A DNA stretch of 64,000 bases from an uncultured delta proteobacterium (GCA_963696385.1 CAVOKF010000003.1:416001-480000); one strand, 5' to 3'; positions 48,955-64,000 are shown, counted from the first letter of the stretch. The notes: generated by a model from the letters alone, not told the origin. Translations and numbers: made by a program.

Positions 48955-48992
48955 GCCCCCGTAGCTCAGAGGATAGAGCAGCGGTTTCCTAA
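48955..48992 (+). pseudogene. 5' half of tRNA-Arg(CCT), truncated after the anticodon loop (probable attL)
   Basis: GCCCCCG TA GCTC-AGAGGATA-GAGC A GCGGT TTCCTAA; the expected ACCGC strand and T arm do not follow. Confidence 0.88.
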
Positions 48993-49006
48993 TTCGGGGC
49001 ATCCGG

Positions 49007-49092
49007 CGCCCGTCGGGACGCACGAAAGCCTGGGAAAAAAGGCAAATGGTGCGTGTTTGACGGGCGATCAGACAGTGGCGAATAGTGGCGAA
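49007..49092. repeat. Putative att arm: inverted repeat plus tandem direct repeats
   Basis: CGCCCGTC(49007)/GACGGGCG(49059) and ACGCAC(49018)/GTGCGT(49049); AGTGGCGAA at 49074 and 49084. Confidence 0.6.
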
Positions 49093-49585
49093 ACGCGCGA
49101 GATGGGACCGCTTGGTTTGCAGGGCGGGACACTAAAGGACGTTTCGCTGGACGCGCTCTTGGCCGAGCTCGCACGGCGTCGGTGAGGTCCCTCGTGGGGA
49201 CTTCACGAAGTGAGGCAATAATGAAGTCCGTCTGAGGGACATCATTCGGCTGGCCGCGTCGTCACGCAAGCGACCATGAAGCTCGCGGAGCTCTACGCCG
49301 AGGAGACGAGCGCCAGTCCTGGGGTCAAAGCGCAATTATTTGATCGCGAACAAGCAATTCGTCCCGGCAAGGCGGCCGTAGCGGAGGTGCACGAGAAAAA
49401 GATGCTGGCTTGTACCGCCAATTGGCTCTCATGATGCCCCCCATCAATTGCGGAGCCATACGCAATGATTCCCGCATGTTAGCGACGATCTGGTCTAGCT
49501 AAGAATTGTAACCGTCGCTGCGCAAAACGGGTGGGAGATTCGAGCTCTTTCGGGGTCGTCCGATTCGGTGCCACTAGGTTCGGTC

Positions 49586-49840
49586 ATGCCCGAACCCGCA
49601 TTACTTCCGTTGCGTGACGCCCTCGTCAGGTATCCAGGCATCTCGCTGGAGACCGCCCGCCGCCTCATACGCGACGGGAAATTACCAGCCGTCCTCATTG
49701 GCCGAATCTATCTGGTCAGTCCGGCCGACGTCGCGAAACTGTTCGCGCCCAAGCTGCGCAATGGACCGGCGCCCCGCAAGCCGCGAGAGAGCGAGACCGC
49801 CAGGGCCGAGCGGCAGTTGACGGAGGCGGGTCTCCGCTGA
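49586..49840 (+). CDS. Excisionase/AlpA-like HTH protein
   Basis: GISLETARRLIRDGKLPAVLIGRIYLV is a typical HTH_17/Xis pattern. Confidence 0.82.
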   Translation: MPEPALLPLRDALVRYPGISLETARRLIRDGKLPAVLIGRIYLVSPADVAKLFAPKLRNGPAPRKPRESETARAERQLTEAGLR

Positions 49841-49845
49841 CGCAC

Positions 49846-50301
49846 ATGAGTACTCCGCCATCGTTCGTAATCTATTGCGACTCGCGCGAGCAAACTCCGC
49901 CTCCGTTTCCTGATGGTGTCGTACTCGAGCGGGTCACTATGTCCGAGGCGGATTACACGTCGCCGAAGCTACAGGGGATCGGAGTCGTCGAACGCAAATC
50001 CACATCCGACTTCGCGAGCTCGATCACGCACTCGAGAGAGAGATTCGACGACGAGGTCCGGCGACTGAAGGCGTATCGCTGGAAGTGCATCATCGTCGAG
50101 GGGAGCCTCCACGACGTCTATCGATGCACGACCGCGCACCCGCATTCGATCATCGGCTCTATTGCATCGTTCTATGCGCGGGCTGATATCCCGACGATTT
50201 TCGCGGGCAATGCCGCAGGTGCGGGCCGACTCATCGCTGGCATTCTCCGTCGCTGGGAGGAGCGCATATTGGCAGAGCGCGCCGAGAGGGGGGCCGCATG
50301 A
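49846..50301 (+). CDS. ERCC4-domain structure-specific nuclease
   Basis: DSREQ, ADY, VERKSTSDFASSI, ERFDDEVRRL, IIVEG. Confidence 0.88.
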   Translation: MSTPPSFVIYCDSREQTPPPFPDGVVLERVTMSEADYTSPKLQGIGVVERKSTSDFASSITHSRERFDDEVRRLKAYRWKCIIVEGSLHDVYRCTTAHPHSIIGSIASFYARADIPTIFAGNAAGAGRLIAGILRRWEERILAERAERGAA

Positions 50302-50510
50302 CTCGAATGCTTGGCTCGCCTGAAAATCAAGCGCGCGTATACGCCAGACGCGCCGCTGGCAAACCGCTCGACGATAACGATCTCGCGGTGATCGGCGAGC
50401 TGCCGGACGACCCTTCAGACGGTTGCATATCAGCACTCGAGCTCGGCGACCAGACTCCCGAGGACATCGCCGAAATCGAACGCCTCGTCAAAGAAAAGAT
50501 GGGCGCGTAA
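50298..50510 (+). CDS. Small acidic hypothetical protein
   Basis: Start/stop overlaps on both sides. Confidence 0.6.
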   Translation: MTRMLGSPENQARVYARRAAGKPLDDNDLAVIGELPDDPSDGCISALELGDQTPEDIAEIERLVKEKMGA

Positions 50511-52078
50511 TGGCCAGCATAACGCCGATCGAGAGCAGGCGCATATTGGAATTGGTCGACGGATTTCCGAAGACGGATTCTGGCAATGCCGAAAGGCTTA
50601 TCGCGCTCAGCGGTCGAGAGCTCCGATACGTGCGTACGTGGTCGAAGTGGATCGCCTGGAATGGCAAACATTGGACGCTGGACGAAGGCGCTCCGCACCG
50701 CGCAGCGAAGGCCATGGCCCGCGCGCTCATGAAGCAGGCGCAGCGAATCGATGATCCAGACGCGAGAAGCGCGGCCGTCCGATATTCACTCAAGTGCGAG
50801 GGCAAGGCGTCGATTGAGGCAATGGTGTCCTTGGCTCGTTACGAGCTGGCGGTTGCCATTGGCCACGAAGAGCTCGACGCCGATCCGTGGCTGCTCTGCG
50901 TTCGCAACGGCACAATCGACCTCAAAACGGGTGAGCTTCGGCCGCATCGGCGTGAGGACCTCATCACCAAGATTGCGCCCATTGACTACGACCCGGCCGC
51001 GACATGCAATCGGTTCGAGCGATTCGTATCCGAGATCATGGCGGGCGACGCTGCGCTCGTCACATTCATTCACCGGTTTCTCGGCTACTGCATGACCGGC
51101 GACGTTCGCGAGCACATTCTCGCCTTCTGGCACGGCGAGGGCGGCAACGGCAAAAGCATGCTCGCCGATCTCGTTCTCTTCGTTATGGGCGATTACGCCT
51201 GCAAAGCAGCGCCGGACCTTCTTTTCAAGGGTGAACACTCGGAGCGTCACCCGACCGAGCTTTGCGACTTGTACGGGCGGCGACTCGTCGTTTGCAACGA
51301 GACGACGAGCGGGCGCTCGTGGGACGAGGCGACGGTGAAGGACATCACCGGCGGCGACCGCATTCGAGCGCGGCGCATGCGCGAGGATTTTCGGGAGTTC
51401 AGTCCGAGCCATAAGCTGCTCGTTTTCGGGAACCATCGACCGCGTATCCGATGCGTAGACAAGGCGATGGAGCGACGGCTCCGACTCGTGCCGTTCGCCG
51501 TCAGCTTCATCGGACGTGAGGACAAGGACCTCAAGCAAGCGCTCAAGGCCGAGGGCCCTGGCGTGCTGGCATGGCTCGTCCGTGGATGCCTTCAGTGGCA
51601 GGCCGAGGGCCTTCCCGACGTCGCCGCGGTCCGCGACGCGACGCAAGCCTATCTCCGCGACGAAGACACACTCGGTCAATTTTTCGACGGCGAGTGCGTC
51701 TTCGACCCGACGGCCAAGATCAGCCGCAAGGAGCTCCGAGACCGCTATGTGGCGTGGTGCGACGACCGCGACGAGCGTCCTGTCAGTCCAAAAACGATCG
51801 CGGATGCCATCACAAGGCGCGCCGTCGTCCCGCGCAAGGTTTGGACAGCGAAGGGGCCTCGTGACGGATGGGCGGGAATTCGGCTCGCAAATGAGGCCGA
51901 ACGAACGACCGCTAGCGACATAGTGACGCCTAACGAGGAAATCCCGGTTCAACGCGATCAGAACGTTTCTCGTGAGATAACCCGGGAATTGCCGACTATG
52001 CCCACTAGCTCGCTAGACGGCGACCAAGAGGACTTCGGCGACTACCTCGAGCGCGAAGGAATTGGGGGTGAGGAGTGA
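50510..52078 (+). CDS. P4-family D5_N + SF3 helicase with wHTH (no primase domain)
   Basis: TDSGNAERL, WNGKHW, NGTIDLKTG, GEGGNGKS, KDITGGD, GNHRP, RRLRLVPF. Confidence 0.92.
   Translation: MASITPIESRRILELVDGFPKTDSGNAERLIALSGRELRYVRTWSKWIAWNGKHWTLDEGAPHRAAKAMARALMKQAQRIDDPDARSAAVRYSLKCEGKASIEAMVSLARYELAVAIGHEELDADPWLLCVRNGTIDLKTGELRPHRREDLITKIAPIDYDPAATCNRFERFVSEIMAGDAALVTFIHRFLGYCMTGDVREHILAFWHGEGGNGKSMLADLVLFVMGDYACKAAPDLLFKGEHSERHPTELCDLYGRRLVVCNETTSGRSWDEATVKDITGGDRIRARRMREDFREFSPSHKLLVFGNHRPRIRCVDKAMERRLRLVPFAVSFIGREDKDLKQALKAEGPGVLAWLVRGCLQWQAEGLPDVAAVRDATQAYLRDEDTLGQFFDGECVFDPTAKISRKELRDRYVAWCDDRDERPVSPKTIADAITRRAVVPRKVWTAKGPRDGWAGIRLANEAERTTASDIVTPNEEIPVQRDQNVSREITRELPTMPTSSLDGDQEDFGDYLEREGIGGEE
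51911..52009. repeat. Imperfect inverted repeat in the helicase 3' end, candidate replication origin
   Basis: GCTAG-CGA-CATAGT ... ACTATG-CCCA-CTAGC, with inner ATCCCGGTT / AACCCGGGAAT. Confidence 0.5.
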
Positions 52079-52480
52079 CCGCCCCGACCTGCCTTTGGCC
52101 TAGTCCCGGAATGGCAGGCCCCTTCGCTGTTCTCGATATCCCCTGCAAGGACATCGATGCCACAACGGTTCAGCAAACCGTTGCAGACGCTTGTTTTCAG
52201 CGCCTTTCCTCGTCAAAGGACGATATAGCGAATCGTCCTGCGAAACAGCCCGCGGAATCATTGATGATTTTGGCGCTGGCCAACGTACTCGAGCCTGCCC
52301 CGTATCCGCGGCTCAGCGGACCCCTCGGCGGGCGGAAGCGCCGCATGGTGCGGCGACTCGCGACGGCGACCGGCGTGGTGCCGGAGGAAGTCTCCGGTCC
52401 GGACAAGGCTGTTTCACACCGCATGAATCACGGCCGTCGCCGCTTGAGGATTACGCGTTTCCCGATTGGAGGATTACCCC

Positions 52481-52639
52481 ATGAGACGTCGCAAACGACA
52501 TAAGGCCTCTCAGGTGCGCCCTGGCGAGCGCGCGAACAGGGTGCCGCCGCCAATCGAGGTGCCGCTCCGGTTGCCGCCATTGCCCCGCGAGTTTGTCGCC
52601 CTCCGCGCCGACGAGCGCGTTGCAGGCAAGGTCAAATGA
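52481..52639 (+). CDS. Small basic protein (52 aa)
   Basis: GGAGG RBS; MRRRKRHKASQ...; ATGA overlap with the next gene; not in the ORF track. Confidence 0.5.
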   Translation: MRRRKRHKASQVRPGERANRVPPPIEVPLRLPPLPREFVALRADERVAGKVK

Positions 52640-53181
52640 CACCCGAACAGAGGGTCGACCCGCGGCGGTTTATTCTAACGCCGGAGCGCCGAGCGATCGT
52701 GCTCGCCTCAGCGACTATTCGGGCCGCTGCCGAGTCGATCGGGGTCACACGGGCCACCCTGAGCTCAGCCGTCAACCGCGACGCCGCGCTGGTCGCAGAG
52801 CTCGCGCGCAAGCGCCAGGCCGAGCGCGATGCAGTCCGCGAAGCCGCGCCGCCGAAGCCGCGCAAGCAGCGCGATGCCGACTCGTTCGACAGCCGTCCGG
52901 TCATTCGAGCCGAGCAGATCGAGGGTGCTGTCCTCGCCGCCGCGACGGCCGTTACGGGCGCGCTGCCGGCCGTCGACAGCCGAGGTCCGCGCTGGGCCGG
53001 TGGAGAGCATTGGTCGCGGCTTAGGGCCGCGTTCCACTGCTTGCCGGAGATGGCCCGGCGCGAGGCAATCACTCGCCTCGTCCTCGAGGAAGCCGAGCGC
53101 ATCGAGGCGGATCGCGGCCTCGAGTGGCGCCCCGCCGAACGACACCAGGGCCAAGTGAGGGCGGGGTCACATGATCACTGA
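52636..53181 (+). CDS. HTH DNA-binding protein
   Basis: TIRAAAESIGVTRATLSSAV HTH. Confidence 0.65.
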   Translation: MTPEQRVDPRRFILTPERRAIVLASATIRAAAESIGVTRATLSSAVNRDAALVAELARKRQAERDAVREAAPPKPRKQRDADSFDSRPVIRAEQIEGAVLAAATAVTGALPAVDSRGPRWAGGEHWSRLRAAFHCLPEMARREAITRLVLEEAERIEADRGLEWRPAERHQGQVRAGSHDH

Positions 53182-53668
53182 CCTCTTGACGGACGAGCTG
53201 ACGCAAGCGCACCTCGCGCTGCTTTTGCACCAGCTTTGGGATGAGTACTTCGAGCCCAGGCCGCGGCCTTTGCTGTTGCCGGTGATCGATGAGGGACTTG
53301 TGGAGTGCGCCAACATCCAGCGCAAGGGCACGATCTTCGTGATCACGTTCGACCGGACGACGCTGGATCTCGGTGTGGGCCGGCGGTGGCTGGTCGACGT
53401 TGCTCTGCATGAGCTCACGCATGTGCCGAGCTATCCCGAGCGCGCCTCGCACGGGCCGGGCTTTTACGCCGAGTGCTGCCGTCTTTCGCCGCTCATAGGC
53501 CTCGAGTTTTTGCCGTGCGAGGACACGGTCCACGAGTGGCCCCACAACATGCGACCCGATGGCTTTTACGAGGGGACTTATTTCGACGCGGACAGGATCG
53601 GATCGGCGTGGCTTGTCGACGTTCGCGATGCGTTCGCGTCGGTGGCCGCGCTCGAGGTGGACCCATGA
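53171..53668 (+). CDS. SprT-like Zn metalloprotease
   Basis: ALHELTH...HGPGFYAECCRL. Confidence 0.7.
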   Translation: MITDLLTDELTQAHLALLLHQLWDEYFEPRPRPLLLPVIDEGLVECANIQRKGTIFVITFDRTTLDLGVGRRWLVDVALHELTHVPSYPERASHGPGFYAECCRLSPLIGLEFLPCEDTVHEWPHNMRPDGFYEGTYFDADRIGSAWLVDVRDAFASVAALEVDP

Positions 53669-53757
53669 CTGCGCTCGATCATGGCAGCAATCATCCCGAC
53701 CGTGAACACGGCCAGACCCATGATGGCAAGGCCAACGATGTAGGTGTACTCGCCCAT
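53578..53757 (-). CDS. Small single-TM protein (59 aa)
   Basis: AGGAG RBS; MGEYTYIVGLAIMGLAVFTVGMIAAMIERS...; manual translation. Confidence 0.5.
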   Translation of the reverse strand: MGEYTYIVGLAIMGLAVFTVGMIAAMIERSHGSTSSAATDANASRTSTSHADPILSASK

Positions 53758-53759
53758 GT

Positions 53760-53933
53760 TCAGCTCCTGCTCCTGGTTCGCTCAATGATGGCGCCGAAAC
53801 CGGCAAAAAACAACCCCAAACCAAGAACGACCACGGTCCACCTCCACGACGGTAAGCCGGCCGCGATTGTCTTTTCTAGCACGCCCAGGGCCGCGACGAG
53901 CACACCAGCCTCCCGCAGAAAGTCGCCCGACAT
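53760..53933 (-). CDS. Small two-TM membrane protein (start uncertain)
   Basis: FLREAGVLVAALGVLE...WTVVVLGLGLFFAGFGAIIER. Confidence 0.55.
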   Translation of the reverse strand: MSGDFLREAGVLVAALGVLEKTIAAGLPSWRWTVVVLGLGLFFAGFGAIIERTRSRS

Positions 53934-53993
53934 CTCTGCCAAGCCTTTAGGCGCCCCCATCGGGGCCATTCCTAGCACATCCGTGGGGACTCC

Positions 53994-54566
53994 ATGGCAA
54001 TAAGGAGTGGACACGGCAACGGCGCCGGCGTGCCCCGGATCGAGGTCCTGCCTCCCGACGAGCTGCCGGATCCGGCTCCGATACCGGACGAGAGCGGTCC
54101 GATTGTGCGCCGCTCGAACGGCACGTTCGCCGATGGGGAGTCCGCCAGGCGGGCCGGTCGCAAAGGTGGCCAGCGCACGCAGCTATTCAGCCGCATCCTT
54201 CGTTCGTTGGGTTTGGCCGAGCTCTCGGCTGACCACGCGTTCTACGCCTACGAGGTGGCCGGCAAAGACTTTGCCGATGCCTACATTTCCCGCCTCACGA
54301 CCATGTTTGGCGAGTGCGGCGAGGGACCCGCCAGCATCGTGAAGACCGCCGGGATTCAGCTCGCATCGAGTCGTTACCTCTACGACCAGGGCAAGCTGAC
54401 GGGCGACGCCGAGCTCCTGGGCCAAGCGTCCAAGATGGGCAACGACCATCGCCAGAACATGCTTGCGAGTTACGAGCTCGCCGCACGGGAAGCTCAGGCG
54501 CGCGAGGCCTCCGTTCCAGACGGCGTCGATGCCCACTGGTGGTCGGACAAGAAGGGCAAGCGATGA
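53994..54566 (+). CDS. Putative terminase small subunit
   Basis: Immediately upstream of and overlapping TerL; RRSNGTF...ARRAGRKGG motif then helical region; largely positional. Confidence 0.6.
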   Translation: MAIRSGHGNGAGVPRIEVLPPDELPDPAPIPDESGPIVRRSNGTFADGESARRAGRKGGQRTQLFSRILRSLGLAELSADHAFYAYEVAGKDFADAYISRLTTMFGECGEGPASIVKTAGIQLASSRYLYDQGKLTGDAELLGQASKMGNDHRQNMLASYELAAREAQAREASVPDGVDAHWWSDKKGKR

Positions 54567-56323
54567 AGTTCACCGAATTCACCGACGACATCGGCCTGAG
54601 CCTCACGCCGGCACAACGTGTACTCTGCAAGGTTTCGTTTGATGGGACCGACCCTTGTGCGCTTGAGGGCGCGGAGCGGGAGCTTGCGCGAGTTCTGTTC
54701 GGCGAAGTCGATACGGTGCCCGCGTTGGCCCGGCGCACGATCGTGCTGACCCTTGGCCGAGGAAGCGGAAAGACGACCATCGCAGCGGCGTACGGTCTCT
54801 ATCGAATGGTGACCGCGGACCTCTCGAGGTGCGGGCCCGGTGACATTCCGCACATGATCGCGGTCGCCCCGACGACGCGAACGGCAAAGCTCGTCGTTGG
54901 CATGGCCCAGGAGCTCACGCAGTGGTCGAAGGCATTGCGTCGGCGCGTCGAATCGGAGACAAAAGAAGGATTCATTCTTCGACGTCCCGACGGCAAGCGC
55001 GTTGCTTTCTCGGCGTTCGCGGCGAGCCGTGGCGGCGCATCCGCCCGCGGGCTCTCGGTCCTCTCGTTCGTGCTCGACGAGAGTGAATTTTTTCAGAGCG
55101 ATGCGGAGTTCGTGGTCACGGACCGTGACGTCTACGGCGCGATCGTCCCCCGTCTGATGGCGGCCGGCGCGGGCGTACTGATCTCGACGCCGTGGCCCGT
55201 GCCCACCATGACGGCCGAACTGCGCGAGAAGAATTTCGGCGCCCCCTCGACGGCTCTGTGCGCAGTGGGTCCGACGCTCGTCATGCGCCCCGGCGACGAA
55301 ACTATCGAGTCGCTGGTCGCCGCCGAGCGAGAGCGCGACCCAGACAACGCGGCGCGCGAGTTCGATTGCGACGCGTCCGCGACCAGCGGCTCGAGCACTC
55401 TCTTTACCGCCGAGATGATCCGCGCATGCGTCGACATGAACCTGGCGCAGCCGTCGCCACGCGTCGGAAGCTATCACCCGAGTTTCGGTTGCGACGTCGC
55501 GTTCGTGCGCGACTCGAGCACCCTCGTCGGGTCGGTCGACAAGGAAGGCGTCGTCGAGGTGCAAACGATTCTTGAAAAGAGGCCAGAGAAAGGCCAGCCA
55601 CTTCGCCCAAAAGAGGTCGTCGACGACTTCGCGAAAGTGATTACTGATTATGGCGCGGTGAGTGTTTGGGGTGATATTCACTATAAGGAATCGGTCCGCG
55701 AACATCTCGAACCGTATCAGATCGAGTTTTGCGACGTGCCCGCTGGCGCAAACGGCAAACAGGAGACGTACCTGCACGCCCGCAAGATGCTAAGCGAGGG
55801 CCGCGTCCGCCTCCCGAACAATCCGCGCTTTCTTGCTCAGTTGAGAAGCATCGTCAGCAAGCCGATGTCCGGCGGAGGTTTGCAGATCAGCGCACCGCGC
55901 CGCGCTGGACTCGCACACGGCGACATCGTCTCGGCGTTCGTGGCGTCGCTCTGGGCTGTCAAACAGGGAGAGCAGCCGGACTGGTTGCGAGCGATGGTCG
56001 CCCTGGATCAGCGGAACGGCGTGTTGTTCGACGGCGGCAATTCTAAGATGTGCAATGAGCGATACGTGAATGCGTTGGCCGCGATTATCGGGTGGCGGAA
56101 GCGCCATGGCAATCTGCGAAAGGATACGCACACGCTCGACGTGGGCAACGACGGTACATATACATTGGTACACGCCAATTATCTGAACGGTGTAGCGCGG
56201 TGGCGTTCCAAGGACCGTTTCGGCAACGTGGTCTTCGATCCGCATTGCGAGCCGGGCTTCAAACATCAGATGGCTTGGATCTGGACAGAACTTTACTCGA
56301 ATCGTGGAGGCGAAGCGCCATGA
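54563..56323 (+). CDS. Terminase large subunit with ~110-aa C-terminal extension
   Basis: LTPAQ; Walker A GRGSGKT; Walker B FVLDESEF; ISTP; RNase-H GCDVAFVRDSS; HGDIVSA. Confidence 0.88.
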   Translation: MKFTEFTDDIGLSLTPAQRVLCKVSFDGTDPCALEGAERELARVLFGEVDTVPALARRTIVLTLGRGSGKTTIAAAYGLYRMVTADLSRCGPGDIPHMIAVAPTTRTAKLVVGMAQELTQWSKALRRRVESETKEGFILRRPDGKRVAFSAFAASRGGASARGLSVLSFVLDESEFFQSDAEFVVTDRDVYGAIVPRLMAAGAGVLISTPWPVPTMTAELREKNFGAPSTALCAVGPTLVMRPGDETIESLVAAERERDPDNAAREFDCDASATSGSSTLFTAEMIRACVDMNLAQPSPRVGSYHPSFGCDVAFVRDSSTLVGSVDKEGVVEVQTILEKRPEKGQPLRPKEVVDDFAKVITDYGAVSVWGDIHYKESVREHLEPYQIEFCDVPAGANGKQETYLHARKMLSEGRVRLPNNPRFLAQLRSIVSKPMSGGGLQISAPRRAGLAHGDIVSAFVASLWAVKQGEQPDWLRAMVALDQRNGVLFDGGNSKMCNERYVNALAAIIGWRKRHGNLRKDTHTLDVGNDGTYTLVHANYLNGVARWRSKDRFGNVVFDPHCEPGFKHQMAWIWTELYSNRGGEAP

Positions 56324-56655
56324 GAACTCGTATCGGAAGGCGCCAACCGTACATCCCCGCGCGACGGCCGATCGGGGCGGACCGCTTCGACGGTCTCATT
56401 CCGGAATTGATCCAGAACGTGATGCAAACGGACCTCGCCGAGGTACGGGGGATCCGTGGTGAGCTCGAAGAATCGGAGGAGCACAACTTCCACTTCGAAT
56501 CGTGGCCGGACGGTCGAATGGCGGTCAGCACGATGGCCAAGAACCCCGAGGTCGCCAAGTGGCATACAAAGCTCAAGGGCGACATCGAGTTCACCGACAA
56601 CGCAAGCAACTTTTTTAGGGCTTGTGCATACAGAATACGGGCGCGCAACTCATAG
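56320..56655 (+). CDS. Hypothetical protein paralogous to the TerL C-terminal extension
   Basis: GGAGG RBS, ATGA overlap; alignment given in findings. Confidence 0.7.
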   Translation: MRTRIGRRQPYIPARRPIGADRFDGLIPELIQNVMQTDLAEVRGIRGELEESEEHNFHFESWPDGRMAVSTMAKNPEVAKWHTKLKGDIEFTDNASNFFRACAYRIRARNS

Positions 56656-56681: not shown

Positions 56682-58097
56682 ATGACGACCAATGTCCAGC
56701 TACCCAGGATCCCAACCCGCACCGTCGGCGGCATGTTGGTGCACAGCCAAGAAGAGGGCATACGCCGGATCCGTGAGGCAGCCGCGGCTCATCGGCCCGC
56801 CTTACCCAAGGTGGCGAAGCTCGTCACGTTGGACGAGAAAATACTCCGCGACATCAATCCAATGATCGACCCCGAATCGGTGGTTCCGTTTTGGGGACCG
56901 CTCCCGACGATCATCCGACAGGGCGACGTCGAGATCGCACGGCTCGAACACATCGGCGACGCGCGACCGACGCACGATCTGTGTGCCGAGCTGCGAGGGC
57001 TCGCGGCGGACTCCGGTGTCGAAGACGACCTCAGCGAAACGTCCGAGGACCATGTTACCGAAGGTGAGGCAGCGGTCCGGGCGATCTTGCGATTCCGGCC
57101 CGAGCTGACCGGCATTCGCCGCTTCTCACGGCCCGATCTGGCGGTCGATATGTGCGCCGTGGACGAGGGTCGCGCGTGGGGACTCAGTGCAGAGCGGATC
57201 GCGGCCCTGGTCGGGCACGCGGTCACGTCGGGGCGTCGATTGAAGGCGCCGTGCTCTCGTGCTCGCGAGCTCGAGGCCGCGGCACGGATCGCGAACGAGA
57301 AGATCGAACAAGAGGCGCAGGCGGCGCAGCGCGCGTACGCCGAGGCGAACCGCGTCGAGTCCCGAACGATTAAGTCGCTTGGGTTGCAAGGCTTGCAGAT
57401 CGATTTTGGGTTGCCCGGGGTGTCGCGCCCCGCGGAACTCGGTGCGGCTACTTGGATCGATAACCTCGCCGTGTGGCGTTCGATCCCTGGGATCTCGATC
57501 CCTCAGGTCAAATTCGCGGTGGGGTCCACGCTCGATCCCAATACGATCGTCACGGCCAACGCTGCGATGCTCGCGTCTGTCGGATTTCCAGACATTGAGA
57601 CATACGGTCTCGTCGTCCGCATCCTTCAAAAATACCTACCGGACAGACGCACTGGCCCGGTCGACACGTTTTCGAAAGTACATCTCGAGGCCGCGCGCGA
57701 ATGCGTACGCCCGCTCATGCCGTATGTGTACTCTACACGTACAGGACTCGGGTACATGCCTCGACTTGTCACGGAGATCGCGGTCAGGGGCTTCATGGTC
57801 TCTCCACCCGCCGCGGTCGCGTTGATCTGGTCCGAGCTCTTGGATCAAGAGAGCATGTCGGCACATCGTCAGATTCCGGTGCAGGCGGGCGCAATCGGGA
57901 CAACGCATCCGCCGATCCGGATCTTGCAGGATCCCAATATGCAGCAGATCGACAAGATCGACCTGCGAGTGACTAGGCCTGTTGAGCGGACGTACGCCGG
58001 GGCGACGAGCAAAGATCAGTTGGCCTCCTGGGCCGCGGAGGCCGCAAGCGGCGGCATCGTCGAAGTCGGATCTCTACTTTCGAAGAAAGGTAAGTGA
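56682..58097 (+). CDS. Hypothetical protein (471 aa) with central coiled coil
   Basis: GAGG RBS; long intact ORF; I recognise no portal or capsid motifs. Confidence 0.7.
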   Translation: MTTNVQLPRIPTRTVGGMLVHSQEEGIRRIREAAAAHRPALPKVAKLVTLDEKILRDINPMIDPESVVPFWGPLPTIIRQGDVEIARLEHIGDARPTHDLCAELRGLAADSGVEDDLSETSEDHVTEGEAAVRAILRFRPELTGIRRFSRPDLAVDMCAVDEGRAWGLSAERIAALVGHAVTSGRRLKAPCSRARELEAAARIANEKIEQEAQAAQRAYAEANRVESRTIKSLGLQGLQIDFGLPGVSRPAELGAATWIDNLAVWRSIPGISIPQVKFAVGSTLDPNTIVTANAAMLASVGFPDIETYGLVVRILQKYLPDRRTGPVDTFSKVHLEAARECVRPLMPYVYSTRTGLGYMPRLVTEIAVRGFMVSPPAAVALIWSELLDQESMSAHRQIPVQAGAIGTTHPPIRILQDPNMQQIDKIDLRVTRPVERTYAGATSKDQLASWAAEAASGGIVEVGSLLSKKGK

Positions 58098-58102
58098 ACG
58101 CC

Positions 58103-58837
58103 ATGGGACAAAATATGAGATACGAATCGACCTCGCGAGACCCCGCACCCAACCCCGAATACGAGAGGGGCGTCGCAGACGTTCGTCGCAAAGAGCTTGC
58201 GCGGATCGGTTACGAGATCCCCGCGAACGCGTCGCCAGCCTACGTCGACGGGGTCTACGGGGTCGCCGTCAAGAAGGGGCAGGTTCGCTCGGACGCCGCG
58301 CCGCGATTTTTGGATCCGCTCGATCTCGTCTTCGCTGGAGGCGTCGAGGCGCGCTCGGACGCGATGCTGACCGAGAGCGGAGTAGAGACGAACACCGCTA
58401 CTCAAGAGGAGACGCTCGCCTCAGCCGACGAACAGCGACAGGCCGGATTCGCCCAAATGCAGGCAAAGTTCGAACGCGGCCTCGAAAATGCGACCTATGG
58501 GTATCGTCCGGCACGGGGGCACGACGGCTCGTTTCCCGGGGGGTCAAGGGGCAATAACGCGAGCACGCCACCGGGCGATCCGGAGTGGGGTCAGCGCGCT
58601 CGGGAGTCGGCTCCGCGAGTTCCGCGCGAGCAAACAGAGCACGGGCGCTCTGCCTTCGGTGGAGGCAACGAGGGCTCTTTCGAGGGATCGTTCGGCGGGG
58701 GGATGGCCACGCCTGACGTCTTCGGCGAGGGCGACTCGACGACGGCCGACGCTCGCGACGCCATGATCGCGCGCGCGCGCGACGCGTGGCGAACCCCGCA
58801 AGGCCCGCGGGCGATGGGTCGCACGCGAGGTGCATGA
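58103..58837 (+). CDS. Putative head-scaffold-like protein (resembles the C-terminal part of DUF2213 proteins)
   Basis: SPAYVDGVY...RSDA and terminal ADARDAMIARARDAW; resemblance from recall. Confidence 0.5.
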   Translation: MGQNMRYESTSRDPAPNPEYERGVADVRRKELARIGYEIPANASPAYVDGVYGVAVKKGQVRSDAAPRFLDPLDLVFAGGVEARSDAMLTESGVETNTATQEETLASADEQRQAGFAQMQAKFERGLENATYGYRPARGHDGSFPGGSRGNNASTPPGDPEWGQRARESAPRVPREQTEHGRSAFGGGNEGSFEGSFGGGMATPDVFGEGDSTTADARDAMIARARDAWRTPQGPRAMGRTRGA

Positions 58838-58840
58838 GCC

Positions 58841-59164
58841 ATGACGTCAGCCGTGTTTGACCGTCGTGACGCCTTGACCGGGACACCAGTTGTGCCGGAG
58901 CCGACGGCGCCGATGCAAACCGACGATGAATTTCGCGCGACCGCGGAGACCAAGCGGGATTCCCTCACGTTTCGCAAGGACGCCGCCGACGTCCTCCGAT
59001 CGCTCAAGGCGCTGCGCCCAGGCGACAGGCGAAATCTGTACGCATGGCTATTTTGGAATGAGGTTGCAGACCTAGGACCCAATGCCGAAATCACGTTCGG
59101 CGGAATGCGTATCCGAACCGGCGCCAACACGCTCGCCGGGGCACCTGTGGAGAAAAACAAATGA
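58841..59164 (+). CDS. Hypothetical protein
   Basis: GAGGT RBS; RRDA, KRDS, RKDA motifs. Confidence 0.6.
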   Translation: MTSAVFDRRDALTGTPVVPEPTAPMQTDDEFRATAETKRDSLTFRKDAADVLRSLKALRPGDRRNLYAWLFWNEVADLGPNAEITFGGMRIRTGANTLAGAPVEKNK

Positions 59165-59337
59165 GCCAAGAATTCGTATGTTCAATCGACGCGACCGTGC
59201 CAGCCCCTACCGCGGAAGCCCAGGTCAAACTCGAGGTCGCCGCGTCCGTTGACGCCTCGGTGGATCTCGCTCCGGCCACACCGGCCGGGTTACGATGGAA
59301 CGAATCAAATTGGGATGAAGCGACGTGGGGGGTCTAG
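59161..59337 (+). CDS. Small protein (58 aa) with terminal Trp repeat WNESNWDEATW
   Basis: GGAG RBS, ATGA overlap; manual translation. Confidence 0.55.
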   Translation: MSQEFVCSIDATVPAPTAEAQVKLEVAASVDASVDLAPATPAGLRWNESNWDEATWGV

Positions 59338-59339
59338 CC

Positions 59340-60605
59340 ATGTCCGGCCAACCCCCAATCGGGACCTGGGCGACGACGACCGACTACCCTCCGGGTTCGA
59401 GCCCGTGGAGCGGTAATCCCACGAAGATCCAGCCAACCCAAACGTATTGGATTCCGGCGACCGGCGTGAGCGCCCCCGAACACAATTACATCATCAACCA
59501 GCTCTACGCGGAACTTGCCGCCGTCGAAGCCGCGGGCGGATCGGCGCTCGTTGCGCAGAACTGGCAATCTGTCATCGCCGCGGGGCCGGCGAACGCGAAC
59601 GCCCTCGCGTGGAATCCAATATTGAGCAGCGGCGGCGCGTTCATCACCGTCGAAAAGAACTCTGGGCCGCTCTACCAGTTCGTATACAACAGCGGCGCGG
59701 ACCTCGTTTGGACGACGCTTGGCTCGACATTCAACGTGAACTCGAGCTCGCCGAACGTTACGGCACTCGCGTGCGGTCCCGCGCAAGGCGTAACATGGGC
59801 GAGTTTTATCAATTCGAGCAACGTCGGATATCTATGGTCGTGCACCGTCGGCGGTTCTACGGACGCGCTGCTAGGTACAGGTAATGTATCCAACATGTAT
59901 CTAGCCGCTGCCGCAACGTCCGGCGTCGACTGGGGCGTTCTCGCTATCGCATCCGGCACGTCCGGCGATTCAGCGCTGTACTTCCTGACCGCCACCGGCG
60001 CGACGGGCTTGTCGACCGGCCTCACCGAAGCGCAATGGGCCGTTGCGTCGAACGGGTCGCTCGTCGTCGCAGTTGGCACCGACCGGATCGTGTATTCCAT
60101 ATCGTCCTCCAGCGGAACGTCCGGCACCGTCTCAACAGCGAATATCGCCTCCGTGCTCGGTACCGATCTGCCAATCTCCATGGCGTACGGCACGAGTACC
60201 ACGTTCCCCTCCGGCGCGTTCATCCTTTGCTGCTCCACAACGACAAGCGGACAGCGTCGCTATTACGCGAGTCAAACCGGTACCGGCGCGACTTGGGTTT
60301 CGCTCGGCGTCGCGACGACCTCGGCGGCGGCTGAAGTCTCGCAAATCGTCGCGTGCGGAAGCCTTTGGCTCGGACTCGTATCGCTGGCCGGCGGGGTCGC
60401 TGGAGTGATCATGGCCCCGAACGGCATCGACTTCGGTGGATCGGCCACGGGCAACTGGCAATCGACCCAGACTCGCGTGGTCCCGAGCGGATCCGCGGAA
60501 CCGATGATCGCCGCTGGGCCCACCCAGGCCGCGATTGCGATGGCAGATGGCGGCCCAACGTTCCGGTTCAGCCAGATCAGCGGGCCCGGCACGGCGTTGA
60601 CGTGA
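59340..60605 (+). CDS. Tail-fibre/receptor-binding-like virion protein
   Basis: N-terminal WA...PWSGNPTK...WIP...APEHNYIINQL, then an S/T/G/A-rich beta region; no signal peptide. Confidence 0.55.
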   Translation: MSGQPPIGTWATTTDYPPGSSPWSGNPTKIQPTQTYWIPATGVSAPEHNYIINQLYAELAAVEAAGGSALVAQNWQSVIAAGPANANALAWNPILSSGGAFITVEKNSGPLYQFVYNSGADLVWTTLGSTFNVNSSSPNVTALACGPAQGVTWASFINSSNVGYLWSCTVGGSTDALLGTGNVSNMYLAAAATSGVDWGVLAIASGTSGDSALYFLTATGATGLSTGLTEAQWAVASNGSLVVAVGTDRIVYSISSSSGTSGTVSTANIASVLGTDLPISMAYGTSTTFPSGAFILCCSTTTSGQRRYYASQTGTGATWVSLGVATTSAAAEVSQIVACGSLWLGLVSLAGGVAGVIMAPNGIDFGGSATGNWQSTQTRVVPSGSAEPMIAAGPTQAAIAMADGGPTFRFSQISGPGTALT

Positions 60606-60637: not shown

Positions 60638-61087
60638 ATGCGCAGCAGCAGGTTTTTTCCTCTCCTCATCCTCAGCGCTCTCGTCATCACGGCGGCCGTC
60701 GCGCGAATCGCAAGCGCGCAAGTCGTCCTACTCAACAATTTCCAGGGCCCGGAGGTCGTCGGACCCTTCACCACTGTTGGCTCCGGCAACTACCAGGTTG
60801 CCCAATTCACCGTCCTCCCGAATCACAATGTATACGTGAGTATCGGGTGCGACGCCATCGACACCGTAAACACCGCGGCCAATTCCTGGCGCCGAGACGT
60901 CTACGTGTTCGATAATAGCGGCGGCATTGCGCCAGCCGTCTTCCAGACACCCGAAAACTACACGACGAGCATCGCCATATCTAGCAATTACGGAACCCCG
61001 GGGGGCAATGCGCTAACGCTCGATTTTGAGACGACGGCATCGGACGCGCTTCGCGTCATATGTGTACTGTACTCGTTCTCGAATTGA
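60638..61087 (+). CDS. Secreted beta-rich protein
   Basis: AGGAG RBS; signal peptide ending ASA-Q; two Cys. Confidence 0.65.
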   Translation: MRSSRFFPLLILSALVITAAVARIASAQVVLLNNFQGPEVVGPFTTVGSGNYQVAQFTVLPNHNVYVSIGCDAIDTVNTAANSWRRDVYVFDNSGGIAPAVFQTPENYTTSIAISSNYGTPGGNALTLDFETTASDALRVICVLYSFSN

Positions 61088-61088
61088 C

Positions 61089-61274
61089 ATGGCCTCGCAC
61101 CGTCCAATTGGCCTTTCGCGTTGGGAGCTTGAGCACGGCGCTCAGCCCGAGGCTTGCCCGATTCCTGAGAGGGTCGAGGGATTTTGGCTCGGACCTGCGG
61201 GAGCGTGGCGCGATAGGGCGATAGCGGCGGAAGCGAAGTTGCTAGAGTTACTTCGCAGTCTTCGCAGCGCGTAA
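61089..61274 (+). CDS. Small hypothetical protein
   Basis: Starts 1 nt after the previous stop; WRDRAIAAEAKL helix. Confidence 0.5.
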   Translation: MASHRPIGLSRWELEHGAQPEACPIPERVEGFWLGPAGAWRDRAIAAEAKLLELLRSLRSA

Positions 61275-61341: not shown

Positions 61342-61495
61342 ACGTCGACGGGACGCTAAGCCGAGGACGACGCAAGGCCTGCCAAAGTGGCCACGGAGCG
61401 AGAGCAGTCACGGCTCAGAAAGTGACGGTCCAGCTGGGCGACAGCCGAGCCAGAAACCCCGAGCGGCGAAAGCTCCCGGGGTTTCGCCCATTTTC
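61342..61495 (+). ncRNA. Candidate structured ncRNA (~150 nt)
   Basis: Between a promoter and a terminator-like hairpin; contiguous stems, GNRA loop, possible pseudoknot; no RBS-led ORF. Confidence 0.55.
61453..61494 (+). terminator. Intrinsic terminator-like hairpin (possibly bidirectional)
   Basis: GAAACCCCG...CGGGGTTTC 9-bp stem followed by GCCCATTTT; a convergent gene ends at 61495. Confidence 0.6.
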
Positions 61496-61968
61496 TACTG
61501 TTCTCCTGGCCCCCTTTTCGGAGCGCTGAGCGCCTGATTCTTGGCCGCGACAATAAGGCCGGCGAGCTCGGCCAGGCCGTCATTGCCTGCTTGGCCTGAG
61601 AATTTGACTCCACTCCACTCGATGTTCGGCGTCATATTTTTTGTGAACCCCTCGCGATGAGGGCGCCCACCGACCACGATAGTTCCGTCGCTTCCGTGAC
61701 GCGCGAAAGATACCTCGACCTGATACCAGCGCGTGCTGTCCGCGTCGCGCGCCGCGTCTTGGTTGAGCGTTACCGATAGCACGATACCGGCGGATGGCTG
61801 CTTGCTGATCTCGTATGTATGAGACCCGGCGACGGCTTCTTCGAGAGCCGTGATTAGGTCTTTGATGCCATTTACTGGCCATCGTACGTCCAGATTTAGT
61901 TCGCCTTGGACGTTCACACTTTCAGTTCCGTCTAGGATTTTTACTGCGCGCTCGATGTCGTACGCCAC
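61495..61968 (-). CDS. Hypothetical cargo protein (157 aa)
   Basis: GGAGGGG RBS; more AT-rich ORF. Confidence 0.7.
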   Translation of the reverse strand: MAYDIERAVKILDGTESVNVQGELNLDVRWPVNGIKDLITALEEAVAGSHTYEISKQPSAGIVLSVTLNQDAARDADSTRWYQVEVSFARHGSDGTIVVGGRPHREGFTKNMTPNIEWSGVKFSGQAGNDGLAELAGLIVAAKNQALSAPKRGPGEQ

Positions 61969-61983
61969 CTGCCCCTCCGTTCG

Positions 61984-62259
61984 CTAAGTCGCTTCCCCAG
62001 CGTGTTGCTTCCTGCACGGCCCCATGGAGAACGATAGGCATTTGTCGCAATACTGCGGCCCGTTCGTTGGCTGCCGAGATCCGGTGCTCTTGGCTTCTGC
62101 GCGCTCCGCAGACTCCGCCTCTTGCACGAGTGCACCGACCACGGCATCGGCGATCTTGATCGCCCTCCGCGCGATTCCCGTTGCGTCGCCGTTCGGGTCT
62201 AACGCGGATCCGGACACGGCGCGGAGAATCAATTCTGTACGAAGTTGATGTTCGTTCAT
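61984..62259 (-). CDS. Hypothetical protein with C-terminal CxxC...CxxxH
   Basis: YCDKCLSFSMGPCRKQH; strong RBS. Confidence 0.65.
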   Translation of the reverse strand: MNEHQLRTELILRAVSGSALDPNGDATGIARRAIKIADAVVGALVQEAESAERAEAKSTGSRQPTNGPQYCDKCLSFSMGPCRKQHAGEAT

Positions 62260-62287
62260 GCTTCCCCTCCGTTCTGACCCCGTATCT

Positions 62288-62470
62288 TTACGGTTTTGGG
62301 TTCATATCGTCCCATTTTTTGATGAGTGGTTTGACTGTTTTCGTAGCTCTGCGTCGGAGCCAGTCGGCAACTTCAACGTCATCGATGCCGGCGACCCGCG
62401 CGAGCGCACCCAGTCTCTCCACGATCCATTGCAGGTCGGCCTTCGTAAGCTTCACTTCGTCATCCACCAT
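62288..62470 (-). CDS. Small hypothetical protein (60 aa)
   Basis: MVDDEVKLTKADLQWIVERL...; strong RBS. Confidence 0.6.
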   Translation of the reverse strand: MVDDEVKLTKADLQWIVERLGALARVAGIDDVEVADWLRRRATKTVKPLIKKWDDMNPKP

Positions 62471-62492
62471 GGCTGGCCCCTCCGTTCGCGCC

Positions 62493-62568
62493 ATGGTCTC
62501 ACCGCCTGACGGGTGGTCAACGAAAAGTTTGCGAGTGGCTTGCGCTCACGCGCTCACGCGCTTATGCT
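62493..62568. promoter_or_regulatory. Divergent sigma70-type promoters with tandem operator-like repeat
   Basis: Plus strand: TTGCGC(62540)-N17-TATGCT(62563) with GCGCTCAC x2; minus strand: TTGACC(62520)-N16-GACCAT with TG extension. Confidence 0.55.
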
Positions 62569-62574
62569 CTCATC

Positions 62575-62859
62575 GTGGCTGCAAAGAAGAAGGAGATCAA
62601 AGTGCAAATCACCGAACGCGCGCTGGTTCAACGCATCAACCGCAAGCTCGCGCCGAAGGCCGAAGACCCCCGTTCCCATAAACGATTGTGCAAGTCGAAG
62701 GGCTTTTACGACGGGCCCTTGAAGCACTTCAACGAGCTCGGGGAATTCTACGTCCTCGACCTAGGCACGAACACGGTCGAGCGCACCGACGTCGACATCG
62801 TGGAGCTCGCGAAGGAGCTCAACGCACTCGCCCCGTGGGAAGCGCTCGCAAGCAACTGA
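62575..62859 (+). CDS. Phage-type hypothetical protein (probably leaderless)
   Basis: ITERALVQRINRKL...LGEFYVLDL...VDIVELAKEL; GTG lies 6 nt after the -10. Confidence 0.7.
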   Translation: MAAKKKEIKVQITERALVQRINRKLAPKAEDPRSHKRLCKSKGFYDGPLKHFNELGEFYVLDLGTNTVERTDVDIVELAKELNALAPWEALASN

Positions 62860-62931
62860 CACGATAGCGCCCCCCGCGCCGCGCTAACGGCCGGGAGGCA
62901 TGGCCCAACCCCGAACGAACCGGAGTCGAAC

Positions 62932-63144
62932 ATGCAACCATTAGCCCATTTTCAAGCAGACGAACCGCCTACGCGCCCGACGGCGCATATCCCCGCATCC
63001 GCCCTCATCGCCTTCCGCCGCATCGGTCGGCTTGCGGAGCTGGCCAGCGAGCGGCTTTCGACCGACCCCGATGCGGACGCGATCCTCGAGGCCATCGGCG
63101 AAATGGAACGCATCCGCGAGATTTGCGCGGAGGTGGGCCGATGA
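62932..63144 (+). CDS. Small hypothetical protein
   Basis: GGAG RBS; overlap with the next gene. Confidence 0.6.
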   Translation: MQPLAHFQADEPPTRPTAHIPASALIAFRRIGRLAELASERLSTDPDADAILEAIGEMERIREICAEVGR

Positions 63145-63443
63145 CGACCCGCCTAGCCCTCATCTTCGCCGCTGCCCTCGTTGGCTGCGGCGGCGCCGCC
63201 GAGTCCGAGCCGTCGCCCCCCGCGGTCGACTGCACGCTGTTTCCTGACGAGACGACCGAAGCGGAAACGAACCTGCCTCTATACATTACCGACGCCGGCG
63301 TGAACCTCGATGGGGCAGCATTGCCCGACGGGTGGGCGTTCGTACCGCCATTCGCCGAACCGGGTAACCTCGATAACTGCGGGTGCGGAGTATACGGGCC
63401 CGCGCCGTATTTTCTCGTCCTCGGCCTCTGCGGGAGCCACTGA
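63141..63443 (+). CDS. Small Cys-containing lipoprotein
   Basis: GGAGGT RBS; lipobox LVGC. Confidence 0.65.
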   Translation: MTTRLALIFAAALVGCGGAAESEPSPPAVDCTLFPDETTEAETNLPLYITDAGVNLDGAALPDGWAFVPPFAEPGNLDNCGCGVYGPAPYFLVLGLCGSH

Positions 63444-63444
63444 C

Positions 63445-63672
63445 ATGAGCGCCCGACCGAACCACCATCGCGACGCTGCCGTCATGGCGACCATGCAGGC
63501 GAGATTCCGCGTCGACAACGCCGTCAAAATCTACGGCGCCCGCGTCGCCAAAGACGCAAACGCACGCGTCGCGATGACGCTGCTAGACATTCTCGATCCC
63601 ATGTTGCGCGCCATCGAGGGGCTATTGCACGAGCCTCTCGATCTCAGCGCCGCGCCCACCGAAGAGCCGTAA
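63445..63672 (+). CDS. Small hypothetical protein
   Basis: GGGAG RBS; start at the ATG at 63445. Confidence 0.55.
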   Translation: MSARPNHHRDAAVMATMQARFRVDNAVKIYGARVAKDANARVAMTLLDILDPMLRAIEGLLHEPLDLSAAPTEEP

Positions 63673-63742
63673 CCGTAACCGAAAGGCCGAAACCGGGGCT
63701 TGCCCCGGTCCACGCGTTATGCGCGTGCTGACGAGGCCGAAC

Positions 63743-64000
63743 ATGGGACGAGCGCTTTCCGGCACGGTCGAATGGCGAGGCACCCCGCCGCGGTGGTGGG
63801 CCCGCATCACGGTCCGCACCGAAGACGGCGGAACACGCCGAGTTTGGGTCGACCTCGAACGGCCGGACCTACGCGACACGCCCGACGACAAGCGGACGGC
63901 GAAACGGCTGGCCCTCAAGCGCGCCAAGCTCGCCGCACGCAAAACGTACGTCGGGGTCGAGCGGGCCGCGGCGCCCAGGGTCACGCTGGCCGAGCTCGAA
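63743..64000 (+). CDS. Probable tyrosine integrase, N-terminal arm-binding region (truncated)
   Basis: MGRALSGTVEWRGTPPRWWARITVRTEDGGTRRVWVDL...TLAELE, open to the edge; catalytic domain not visible. Confidence 0.7.
   Translation, partial: MGRALSGTVEWRGTPPRWWARITVRTEDGGTRRVWVDLERPDLRDTPDDKRTAKRLALKRAKLAARKTYVGVERAAAPRVTLAELE

Follow-up and report, generated by a model that had tools for sequence, protein, structure and literature searches.

What kind of mobile element carries a phage packaging motor of its own and no recognisable virion shell? The question is raised by the right-hand end of a stretch of 64,000 nucleotides from an uncultured delta proteobacterium (GCA_963696385.1, CAVOKF010000003.1:416001-480000), hereafter the window, which corresponds to contig C3:416001-480000 of the 6.9-Mb, 96%-complete genome G000. 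The island concerned, element A, begins at position 48953 and runs past the end of the window. We consider it likely that element A is an integrated phage satellite that encodes its own terminase, lacks a shell and is packaged in helper-derived particles. A preliminary description, made from the window alone, had proposed a satellite with its own small and large terminase subunits (TerS and TerL) and virion-modifying parts, lacking a head or tail core, and had named three findings that would speak against it: a portal or major capsid fold of the protein encoded at 56682-58097, head or tail genes beyond position 64000, and full prophages of which the locus would be a one-off deletion. None of the three was found, and the proposal is supported.

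Element A is delimited by an exact direct repeat of 40 nucleotides (40/40). The left copy, attL (48953..48992), is the 5' half of a tRNA-Arg(CCT) gene, and the right copy, attR, is found outside the window at window-equivalent positions 65094-65133, within the tRNA-Arg(CCT) gene at 65096-65170. Since the repeat equals the 5' half of a tRNA, the element is bounded, and the spacing of the repeats gives a size of 16,141 bp, in line with the earlier estimate of about 16-17 kb with the integrase gene last. This gene, for a tyrosine integrase, starts on the plus strand at 63719 (63719..64000 in the window) and continues to about 65095 in window-equivalent numbering, into attR and the tRNA-Arg(CCT); residues 125-410 of its product match the solved Int structure 6en0 (E 5.8e-7). 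Past 64000 the DNA contains the remainder of the integrase gene, attR with the tRNA, an opposite-strand integrase fragment and unrelated open reading frames (ORFs), and no head or tail genes were found beyond attR in the sequence read past the window end. A sister element, B, is present on the same contig in a tRNA-Gly(CCC) gene, with an exact 44-nt att repeat and a size of 16,255 bp, and is syntenic with A from g03 to g23.

Gene g10 (54563..56323, plus strand) encodes the predicted large terminase, which matches phrog_2 (1.1e-16) and the TerL nuclease structure 5tge (5.9e-10); a TerL profile matches the solved nuclease domains 5tge, 5m1f and 6z6d. In an alignment of nine sequences the Walker A residues G65 and K70, the Walker B residues D172 and E173, and D259, D311, D371, H452 and D454 are invariant (9/9). 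The protein combines the Walker A/B ATPase and the acidic residues of an RNase-H-like nuclease expected of large terminases of tailed phages, and g10 can be regarded as a complete-looking large terminase, which bears out the earlier assignment. The gene upstream, g09 (53994..54566, plus strand; 190 amino acids), overlaps the TerL gene by an ATGA. It is kept upstream of TerL in six of six aligned elements, with an invariant N-terminal part of about 25 amino acids, and from its position, size and conservation in the family we infer that it is the small terminase subunit. The previous naming of g09 as TerS thus holds for position and conservation and is not joined by a match to a family or PDB structure. 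Comparison of A and B by the method of Nei and Gojobori gave ratios of non-synonymous to synonymous substitution rates (dN/dS) of 0.10-0.65 in all 11 gene pairs; the ORFs are real genes, with all compared pairs under purifying selection.

The hallmark protein of the elements is g12 (56682..58097, plus strand), which consists of 471 amino acids. A word-based search with g12 retrieved two relatives only, and a profile search of 1.84 billion representatives gave 77 clusters at E<=0.001, mostly of 430-530 amino acids. With 55 aligned members no consistent Pfam or PHROG match was obtained, the profile gave nothing meaningful against PDB sequences, a tblastn search of 50,697 phage records with g12 was without match, and the ESM Atlas offered nothing usable. 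The AlphaFold2 model based on the 55-sequence alignment is confident (predicted local distance difference test, pLDDT, 88.6; predicted template modelling score, pTM, 0.65) and its fold has no known match. Foldseek found no PDB structure at E<=0.001 (best E 1.2) and, in BFVD, a best match at E 0.035 to Prim_Pol proteins, and VIA-align gave a best Z of 6.4 against 48,161 PDB representatives and of 6.9 against the 293 chains from Foldseek, in both cases for the C-terminal helix bundle only (KaiA-like). Among the matches listed by Foldseek (PDB and BFVD) and VIA-align there was no portal or HK97 chain, a result to be read with the caveat that domains of a 471-residue model can escape detection; aligned by hhalign to the portal and head-morphogenesis proteins of phage phiEt88, the g12 profile gave a probability of 0.1. 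On this evidence, strong and not final, g12 was rejected as a recognisable portal or HK97 capsid protein. It was also rejected as an active prim-pol, the match to NrS-1 being weak (Z 3.1-3.4, residues 225-320) and the acidic and histidine columns being conserved in 42 of the 55 sequences at most. Most conserved columns hold G, P, L, A or R (G112, P250, R369, G458, G463) and no catalytic-looking triad is seen, so g12 looks structural rather than enzymatic. Prediction of a two-copy g12 complex gave a median score of 0.33 versus a mark of 0.42.

The genes around g12 include the candidate virion-modifying parts. In G228, a genome of the same genus, the g12 homolog is followed by a gene for a DUF2213 head-maturation protease of 391 amino acids (PF09979 3.3e-26, phrog_530 2e-47). 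Its C-terminal ca. 205 residues (about 185-391) align with g13 of both A (58094..58837, plus strand) and B, including a terminal D-x-M-I-x-R-x-K-D-x-W-R motif, and g13 therefore corresponds to the non-protease, scaffold-like portion of such an enzyme. As judged from the alignment, g13 is what remains of a DUF2213 protease after loss of the protease domain, namely its scaffold-like C-terminal tail; this strengthens the scaffold-like role proposed before, since relatives have the protease at the same position. The g13 proteins of A and B are 81-82% identical (dN/dS 0.21). Further downstream, g16 (59325..60605, plus strand) has no family match and consists of a conserved N-terminal part of about 75 amino acids, 57% identical in A and B, and a variable beta-rich remainder (37%). 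Six other elements encode proteins of 237-580 amino acids that begin with this N-terminal domain, and in one of them, L036, the gene stands directly before Dit-like and tape-measure genes. Such a conserved head on variable bodies, in front of Dit and tape-measure genes, is the pattern of tail fibres or receptor-binding proteins (RBPs), unlike that of a capsid protein, and g16 is a candidate for such a protein. The ESM Atlas leads for g16, all below 0.9, point in this direction as well and include a viral hypothetical protein, BNR/WD40-like proteins, Collar and the RBP propeller Phage_RBD_prop; a word search retrieved g16 itself only. The remaining small genes of the module, all on the plus strand, are g11 (56320..56655; 111 amino acids, 38% identical in B, dN/dS 0.32), g14 (58841..59164; 107 amino acids, the best conserved of the module at 88-89%, dN/dS 0.22) and g15 (59161..59337; 58 amino acids, 62-64%). 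They are followed by g17 (60638..61087), with a hydrophobic, signal-peptide-like N-terminus in its translation, no family and a positional counterpart in B (34%), and by the small conserved g18 (61026..61274; 59-75%, dN/dS 0.10).

No capsid or portal was recognised by Pfam and PHROGs in the 27 ORFs of element A, nor was a portal or capsid family of NCBIfam. Tail families of Pfam and PHROGs were not recognised in A, leaving the fibre-like g16, and head-tail adaptor or connector families of the same databases were found neither in A and B nor in 10 related loci. From 56320 to 63672 no match to Pfam, PHROGs, NCBIfam or PADLOC was obtained.

The place of g12 in the gene order gives rise to another explanation. 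In phiEt88 terS and terL are followed by the portal gene and then by the genes for head morphogenesis, the DUF2213 protease, x and the capsid, and g12, between TerL and the protease or scaffold gene, sits in the portal position. Element A could then be akin to a capsid-forming phage-inducible chromosomal island (cf-PICI) in disguise, with g12 as a very divergent portal and an unrecognised capsid ORF; it would make its heads itself and take only tails from a helper. Apart from gene position, its main argument, this explanation would account for the portal-like size of g12 across the 77 clusters, for the joint occurrence of TerS, TerL and g12 in 10 loci and for the head-maturation protease of the relatives, of which the usual substrates are head proteins; cf-PICIs, in the available part of the survey by de Sousa et al. 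2023 (PMC10085698), have a median of 14 kb and 19 proteins. We nevertheless consider it unlikely, because the confident g12 model has no portal match by fold search and hhalign gave the low probability mentioned above. Moreover, apart from g12 only g16 has the length needed for an HK97 capsid, and its ca. 75-residue head on bodies of 237-580 amino acids is unlike a capsid protein, and in a related element of G228 (contig C8) TerS and TerL are followed by only four ORFs of 61-98 amino acids before the integrase. That the element is an autonomous miniature virus, with capsid, portal and tail all of unknown families, is far less credible still. The ca. 5 kb of orphan ORFs after TerL would suit it, and the smallest tailed phages have 11.6 kb according to the accessible part of PMC13669383, but the whole virion would have to be encoded by only eight ORFs (58-471 amino acids), a lysis gene was not recognised, and relatives keep as little as TerS and TerL, or single tail parts unable to form a tail.

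The satellite interpretation also draws on the relatives of A. Identities between A and B are strongly mosaic across genes (TerL 27%, g16 36%, TerS 48%, g12 58%, and the higher values for g13 and g14 given above). At E<=0.001 the g12 profile had matches in 13 of the 383 bacterial-family genomes, and seven of the 31 genus genomes, among them G000, gave strong ones. Searches at the order level had matches in 3 of 401 genomes and at the phylum level in 2 of 401. Genome G874 holds four g12 loci and G194 two. The occurrence of up to four different members at different sites of one genome indicates that the elements coexist, and they probably recombine, as suggested by the mosaic identities of A and B.

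For gene content we scanned eight g12 loci (81 ORFs, from seven relatives), B together with the G228 element (29 ORFs) and three loci that lack g12 (31 ORFs, PHROGs only). In six of the eight g12 loci g12 is preceded by TerL, as recognised with phrog_2 or tblastn; neither method gave a match in G210 (L038) and G880 (L039). Behind g12 the content varies: L034 has a baseplate hub of the E217-gp41 type (phrog_196 2e-53) and a Dit-like protein, L035 a g16-like protein only, L036 a g16-like protein, a Dit-like protein and a tape measure (phrog_8462 6.5e-41), L037 a DUF2213 protease (7e-65), a Dit-like protein and a Pam3-gp18 plug, and L038, from another genus, a cement protein. The three g12-less loci have the TerS N-terminus. 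In G881 TerS and TerL are accompanied by a protease (phrog_328) and a head decoration protein, in G232 they are followed by ORFs without assignment, and in G228:C8 (L051/L052), a 10,834-bp element at a tmRNA 3' end, the four short ORFs and the integrase complete the set; here the family is reduced to its minimal form. No family of capsid, portal, tube or sheath proteins was found in the relatives' ORFs with Pfam and PHROGs, or with PHROGs alone for the three g12-less loci. The core of the family is the TerS-like protein, TerL and g12, with a variable slot for virion parts behind g12. Replication modules are swapped freely, D5 and AAA_25 types being identified by family matches, and modules that we judge from their sequence to be DnaB-like and SNF2-like occur in some relatives. 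Insertion sites across the family are tRNA-Arg, Gly, Glu, Thr, Leu, Pro and Val genes and the tmRNA gene. The g12 homolog of L038 (G210:C32) is the most distant one (E 2e-18); it adjoins the cement-protein gene and a Prim-Pol/VapE helicase, and PADLOC candidate defence genes surround it (PDC-S39 1.3e-120, PDC-S47 3.8e-35, CapP/RmrA-like and E1-E2-like).

Such partial virion gene sets that vary between relatives might also be expected of decayed prophages, the remnants of ordinary temperate phages whose head and tail genes were deleted. Signs of damage are present: in the G228:C6 copy the integrase region is cut by ORFs that we take from their sequence to be IS66-like, and the Dit-like gene of L034 is broken up into two ORFs. 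Decay is nonetheless improbable as an explanation for the family, in view of the exact att repeats (40 and 43-44 nt), the purifying selection in all A/B gene pairs, the invariant catalytic residues of TerL, and the eight or more insertion sites with the same partial content and similar sizes. Furthermore, searches with g12 in the 383 genomes of the bacterial family, and with DUF2213 or the N-terminus of g16 in the 31 genomes of the genus, found no full-length prophage relative. In G000 itself a full prophage of this type was likewise not found, as judged by TerL (phrog_2) and the PF05065 capsid, which favours the satellite interpretation. The homologous loci are small elements of 10.8-16.7 kb, integrated in tRNA or tmRNA genes and with the same partial content, and not full prophages from which A arose by a single deletion.

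The elements with g12 are also similar in size. From att repeats, sizes of 16,141 bp (A), 16,255 bp (B), 16,219 bp (tRNA-Glu), 16,661 bp (tRNA-Thr) and 15,562 bp were obtained, the last from a weaker att call (a 28-nt repeat, 93% identical), and a JGI metagenome contig with a g12 homolog measures 16,232 bp. A narrow size in spite of shuffled content is what a limit on capsid capacity would give. The T=4 heads of SaPI1, a Staphylococcus aureus pathogenicity island (SaPI), match about 15-16 kb. Its T=4 capsid is named in the part of PMC13669383 at hand, and by analogy the size of ca. 16 kb may be linked to T=4 heads.

The same set of genes could be read as a mobile anti-phage island that acts outside virions, in which the terminase, together with virion parts serving as decoys, would disrupt how an infecting phage is packaged and assembled. 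Assembly could be poisoned by decoys, for instance a scaffold without protease, a hub, a Dit protein or a tape measure; the distant g12 locus of G210 lies among PADLOC candidate defence genes, and known satellites interfere with helper packaging (PMC11417361, in the text available). PADLOC, however, gave no match for 13 ORFs of A or three of B, and the element's own replication module, its excisionase-family gene and the tight size clustering fit a packaged element and not a static defence island. We attach little probability to this explanation, about as little as to prophage decay; interference and transfer are in any case not mutually exclusive.

Several observations weigh against a packaged satellite. 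A resident helper was not found: in the 96%-complete genome only the TerL proteins of the two elements match phrog_2, and there is no PF05065 capsid. A search for DUF2213 in the same genome gave no match, but neither did the search control. Among the 31 genus genomes all four DUF2213 loci adjoin a g12 homolog and all strong matches to the g16 N-terminal domain lie in these elements, so no shared part ties the elements to a phage. Joints expected of an excised circle or an empty att site were not listed in Logan contigs of four soil runs, all from one study, of uninterpretable depth and uninformative on mobilisation in virions. For g09, no TerS family or structure was found in Pfam, PHROGs, NCBIfam or PDB, the profile matching designed helical repeats only in PDB, and g16 is modelled by AlphaFold2 with a pLDDT of 31 from a two-sequence alignment. 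The portal position of g12 would allow a very divergent portal. The size clustering comprises five elements and one contig of related lineages, with one weak att call, and the g12-less relatives have 10,834 bp (tmRNA), 14,321 bp and 15,291 bp, or 10.8-15.3 kb overall. Finally, Pfam and PHROGs give poor coverage of the proteins of myxobacterial phages, and 'none recognised' says less than 'none present'.

If element A is nevertheless a packaged satellite, as we consider likely, its life cycle may be pictured as follows. A helper phage, probably contractile-tailed and of the E217/Pam3 kind, would infect the cell or be induced, after which element A would excise and replicate. TerS and TerL would cut the element DNA and pump it into procapsids whose capsid and portal proteins come from the helper. 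Adaptation of these procapsids, possibly to a small capacity of ca. 16 kb, may fall to the scaffold-like g13 and perhaps to g12, and adsorption may be set by g16 as a fibre-like protein carried on the tail of the helper. Across the family, every element would exchange a different subset of virion parts. The E217- and Pam3-type families to which the borrowed parts belong suggest a helper with a contractile tail. A more specific picture is tentative and rather doubtful in its details: a parts-swapping satellite family that always has its own terminase and mostly g12, with its fold unseen in solved structures, where g12 would fit the motor to the helper procapsid and set a capacity of about 16.2 kb, g16 would retarget the tail to the host range of the satellite, and the exchanged parts would be a protease-less scaffold, protease, decoration or cement protein, Dit, hub, plug, tape measure and fibre.

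The gene content and order of the preliminary description (Xis-like, ERCC4, D5 helicase, TerL, integrase) were recovered by family and structure matches. A non-coding stretch upstream of the first gene (49430..49514) is 88% identical to element B by blastn and is a possible control region. It is followed on the plus strand by g01 (49568..49840), an excisionase-family helix-turn-helix (HTH) protein of the Xis/AlpA-like regulator type (HTH_17, PF12728 2.8e-6; phrog_66 1.5e-4; TIGR01764 5.6e-6), g02 (49846..50301), an ERCC4-type nuclease (PF02732 8.6e-13; phrog_3490 4.2e-13), and g03 (50298..50510), a small conserved protein without family and with a 60% identical copy in B. The replication gene g04 (50510..52078, plus strand) encodes a D5_N/P4-family primase C-terminal helicase (D5_N 2.8e-35; phrog_2478 2.7e-120; TIGR01613 3.5e-86), in which the N-terminal prim-pol domain is missing, phrog_2478 being matched at profile positions 405-845 only. 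For g05 (52075..52503, plus strand) no family match was found in Pfam, PHROGs, NCBIfam or PADLOC. The next plus-strand gene, g06 (52636..53181), is a conserved ORF (71% identical in B, dN/dS 0.33); the HTH identity given to it earlier is not confirmed, with a HigA match of 0.016 only (NCBIfam). Similarly, g07 (53171..53668, plus strand) does have the HExxH motif (HELTH in the translation) and may be called SprT-like at best, since the copy in A has no family match and that in B a sub-threshold one (E 0.0065). In L034 a 247-amino-acid ORF (10253-10996) with a weak match to the Pfam ATLF metalloprotease family (E 1.7e-4, 21.8 bits versus a cut-off of 27.4) is probably a HExxH protease like g07.

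Between g07 and TerS, a block of 521 bp (53550..54070) is 96.4% identical in A and B by blastn, whereas the rest of the two elements is 74-88% identical or unalignable. It comprises the end of g07, the antisense ORF g08b (53760..54014, minus strand) and the first 77 nt of TerS. The g08b product, 84 amino acids with hydrophobic stretches, is 94% identical in B, has a 54% identical copy at C5:1512811-1513059 and is possibly a small membrane protein. Stand-alone DNA copies of the block, 71% identical, are present in the same genome (C5:1512811-1513133) and in G288:C225:4000-4241. The block might have been exchanged recently, might act in cis (as a pac/cos site or late promoter) or might hold a small gene of the toxin or exclusion type. 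At the other end of the element an accessory region (61495..63443) contains ORFs on the minus strand (61495-61968, 61984-62259, 62288-62494) and on the plus strand (62575-62859, 62932-63144 and 63123-63443, the last lipoprotein-like), of which only 62932-63144 has a counterpart in B (49%).

The integrase frame crosses the att core in both elements, into tRNA-Arg in A and into tRNA-Gly in B, and integration therefore alters the C-terminal tail of Int. The intP/intX pair of myxophage Mx8 has the same arrangement, in which the Int C-terminus is altered on integration. BLASTP detected no similarity between the integrases of A and L037. A C-terminal tyrosine-integrase fragment adjoins attR of A on its outer side (minus strand, window-equivalent 65240-65620; L002 3240-3620). 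Its near-identical counterpart ('AGVAE.TIKRLMGHAGSGVTQQHYTAQTL') is located just outside the distal att site of B (L010 17771-18268). These fragments look like leftovers of former occupants of the tRNA sites or a common flanking module. To the left of the element, an ORF of 373 amino acids (47501-48622, minus strand) adjoins attL; it has a sub-cut-off match to the P-loop family AAA_22 (E 5.8e-4) and could encode a STAND-like NTPase.

Compared with described satellites, element A differs from each class in its recognised genes, as the preliminary description had maintained in proposing a new type; the term calls for qualification, A being better seen as a variant of the satellite idea. Like a cf-PICI, A is a small integrated island with an integrase, a regulator, a primase/helicase, a predicted TerS and TerL; it resembles cf-PICIs further in the absence of recognised tail or holin genes, the fibre-like g16 apart, and, in some relatives, in a head protease. 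In the SatelliteFinder model, as given in the accessible text of PMC10085698, cf-PICIs need a portal, capsid, protease, head-tail adaptor and connector besides TerL, and tails are forbidden. Unlike these, neither A nor 10 related loci have a recognised portal, capsid, adaptor or connector, an HNH nuclease was not found, and relatives of A carry tail and baseplate parts (Dit_like, hub, plug, tape measure). With classical PICIs and SaPIs, A shares integration in a tRNA gene, its own replication, a TerS (predicted in A), which in these islands redirects packaging, a size of ca. 15-16 kb and scaffold-type proteins, by which the islands remodel the capsids of their helpers. Classical PICIs use the TerL of the helper and lack their own (PMC10085698, same part), whereas A has a conserved TerL, and its g13 derives from a DUF2213 protease/scaffold and not from CpmA/B; thus the integrase, excisionase-family HTH and primase-helicase of a PICI are present in A together with TerL and a scaffold-like gene.

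The small genome of P4 is packaged into a T=4 head of helper protein. Element A resembles P4 in its integrase and in the P4-family primase-helicase C-terminal domain, and the similarity is confined to this primase C-terminal/helicase, with no other P4 family matched in Pfam, PHROGs and NCBIfam. P4-like satellites are characterised by psu, sid and delta genes for capsid hijacking and by cos packaging with the helper terminase. Unlike A, P4 has no TerS, TerL or slot for virion parts; according to the available text of PMC10690885 it uses the P2 terminase and the external scaffold Sid. The same text describes the Streptomyces satellites MulchRoom and MiniFlayer with TerS, TerL, portal, capsid and scaffold, in MiniFlayer also a fibre, and without replication genes. 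Element A is similar to these in its predicted TerS, its own TerL, its scaffold-like protein and, for MiniFlayer, a gene for a fibre-like protein, and the reverse in lacking a recognised portal and capsid and possessing replication genes. Virion-encapsidated integrative mobile elements (VEIMEs) carry TerS at most (PMC9618062, part seen). Full-text searches of main texts found neither a TerL-carrying, capsid-less satellite nor a myxobacterial satellite; the string 'Myxococc' has 0 occurrences in the available part of PMC10085698, and no TerL-carrying, capsid-less satellite is described in the accessible part of a preprint on haloarchaeal satellites.

Described families thus either borrow the large terminase of the helper (P4, PICIs, PICI-like elements (PLE), phage-inducible chromosomal minimalist islands (PICMI), VEIMEs) or bring a whole head (cf-PICIs, Streptomyces satellites). 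If our interpretation is correct, a motor with selected head and tail parts only would constitute a third satellite strategy, TerL need not co-evolve with a portal and capsid of its own, and satellites would extend to the Myxococcota. The g12 proteins, a family of 77 clusters with a confident, unmatched fold, are open to testing, and the tight sizes of 15.6-16.7 kb offer a direct handle on capsid-size control. By its gene content element A is best filed as a variant of the phage satellites, set apart from the P4, PICI, cf-PICI and Streptomyces types by the combination of its own predicted terminase, a hallmark protein of unmatched fold and variable virion parts.

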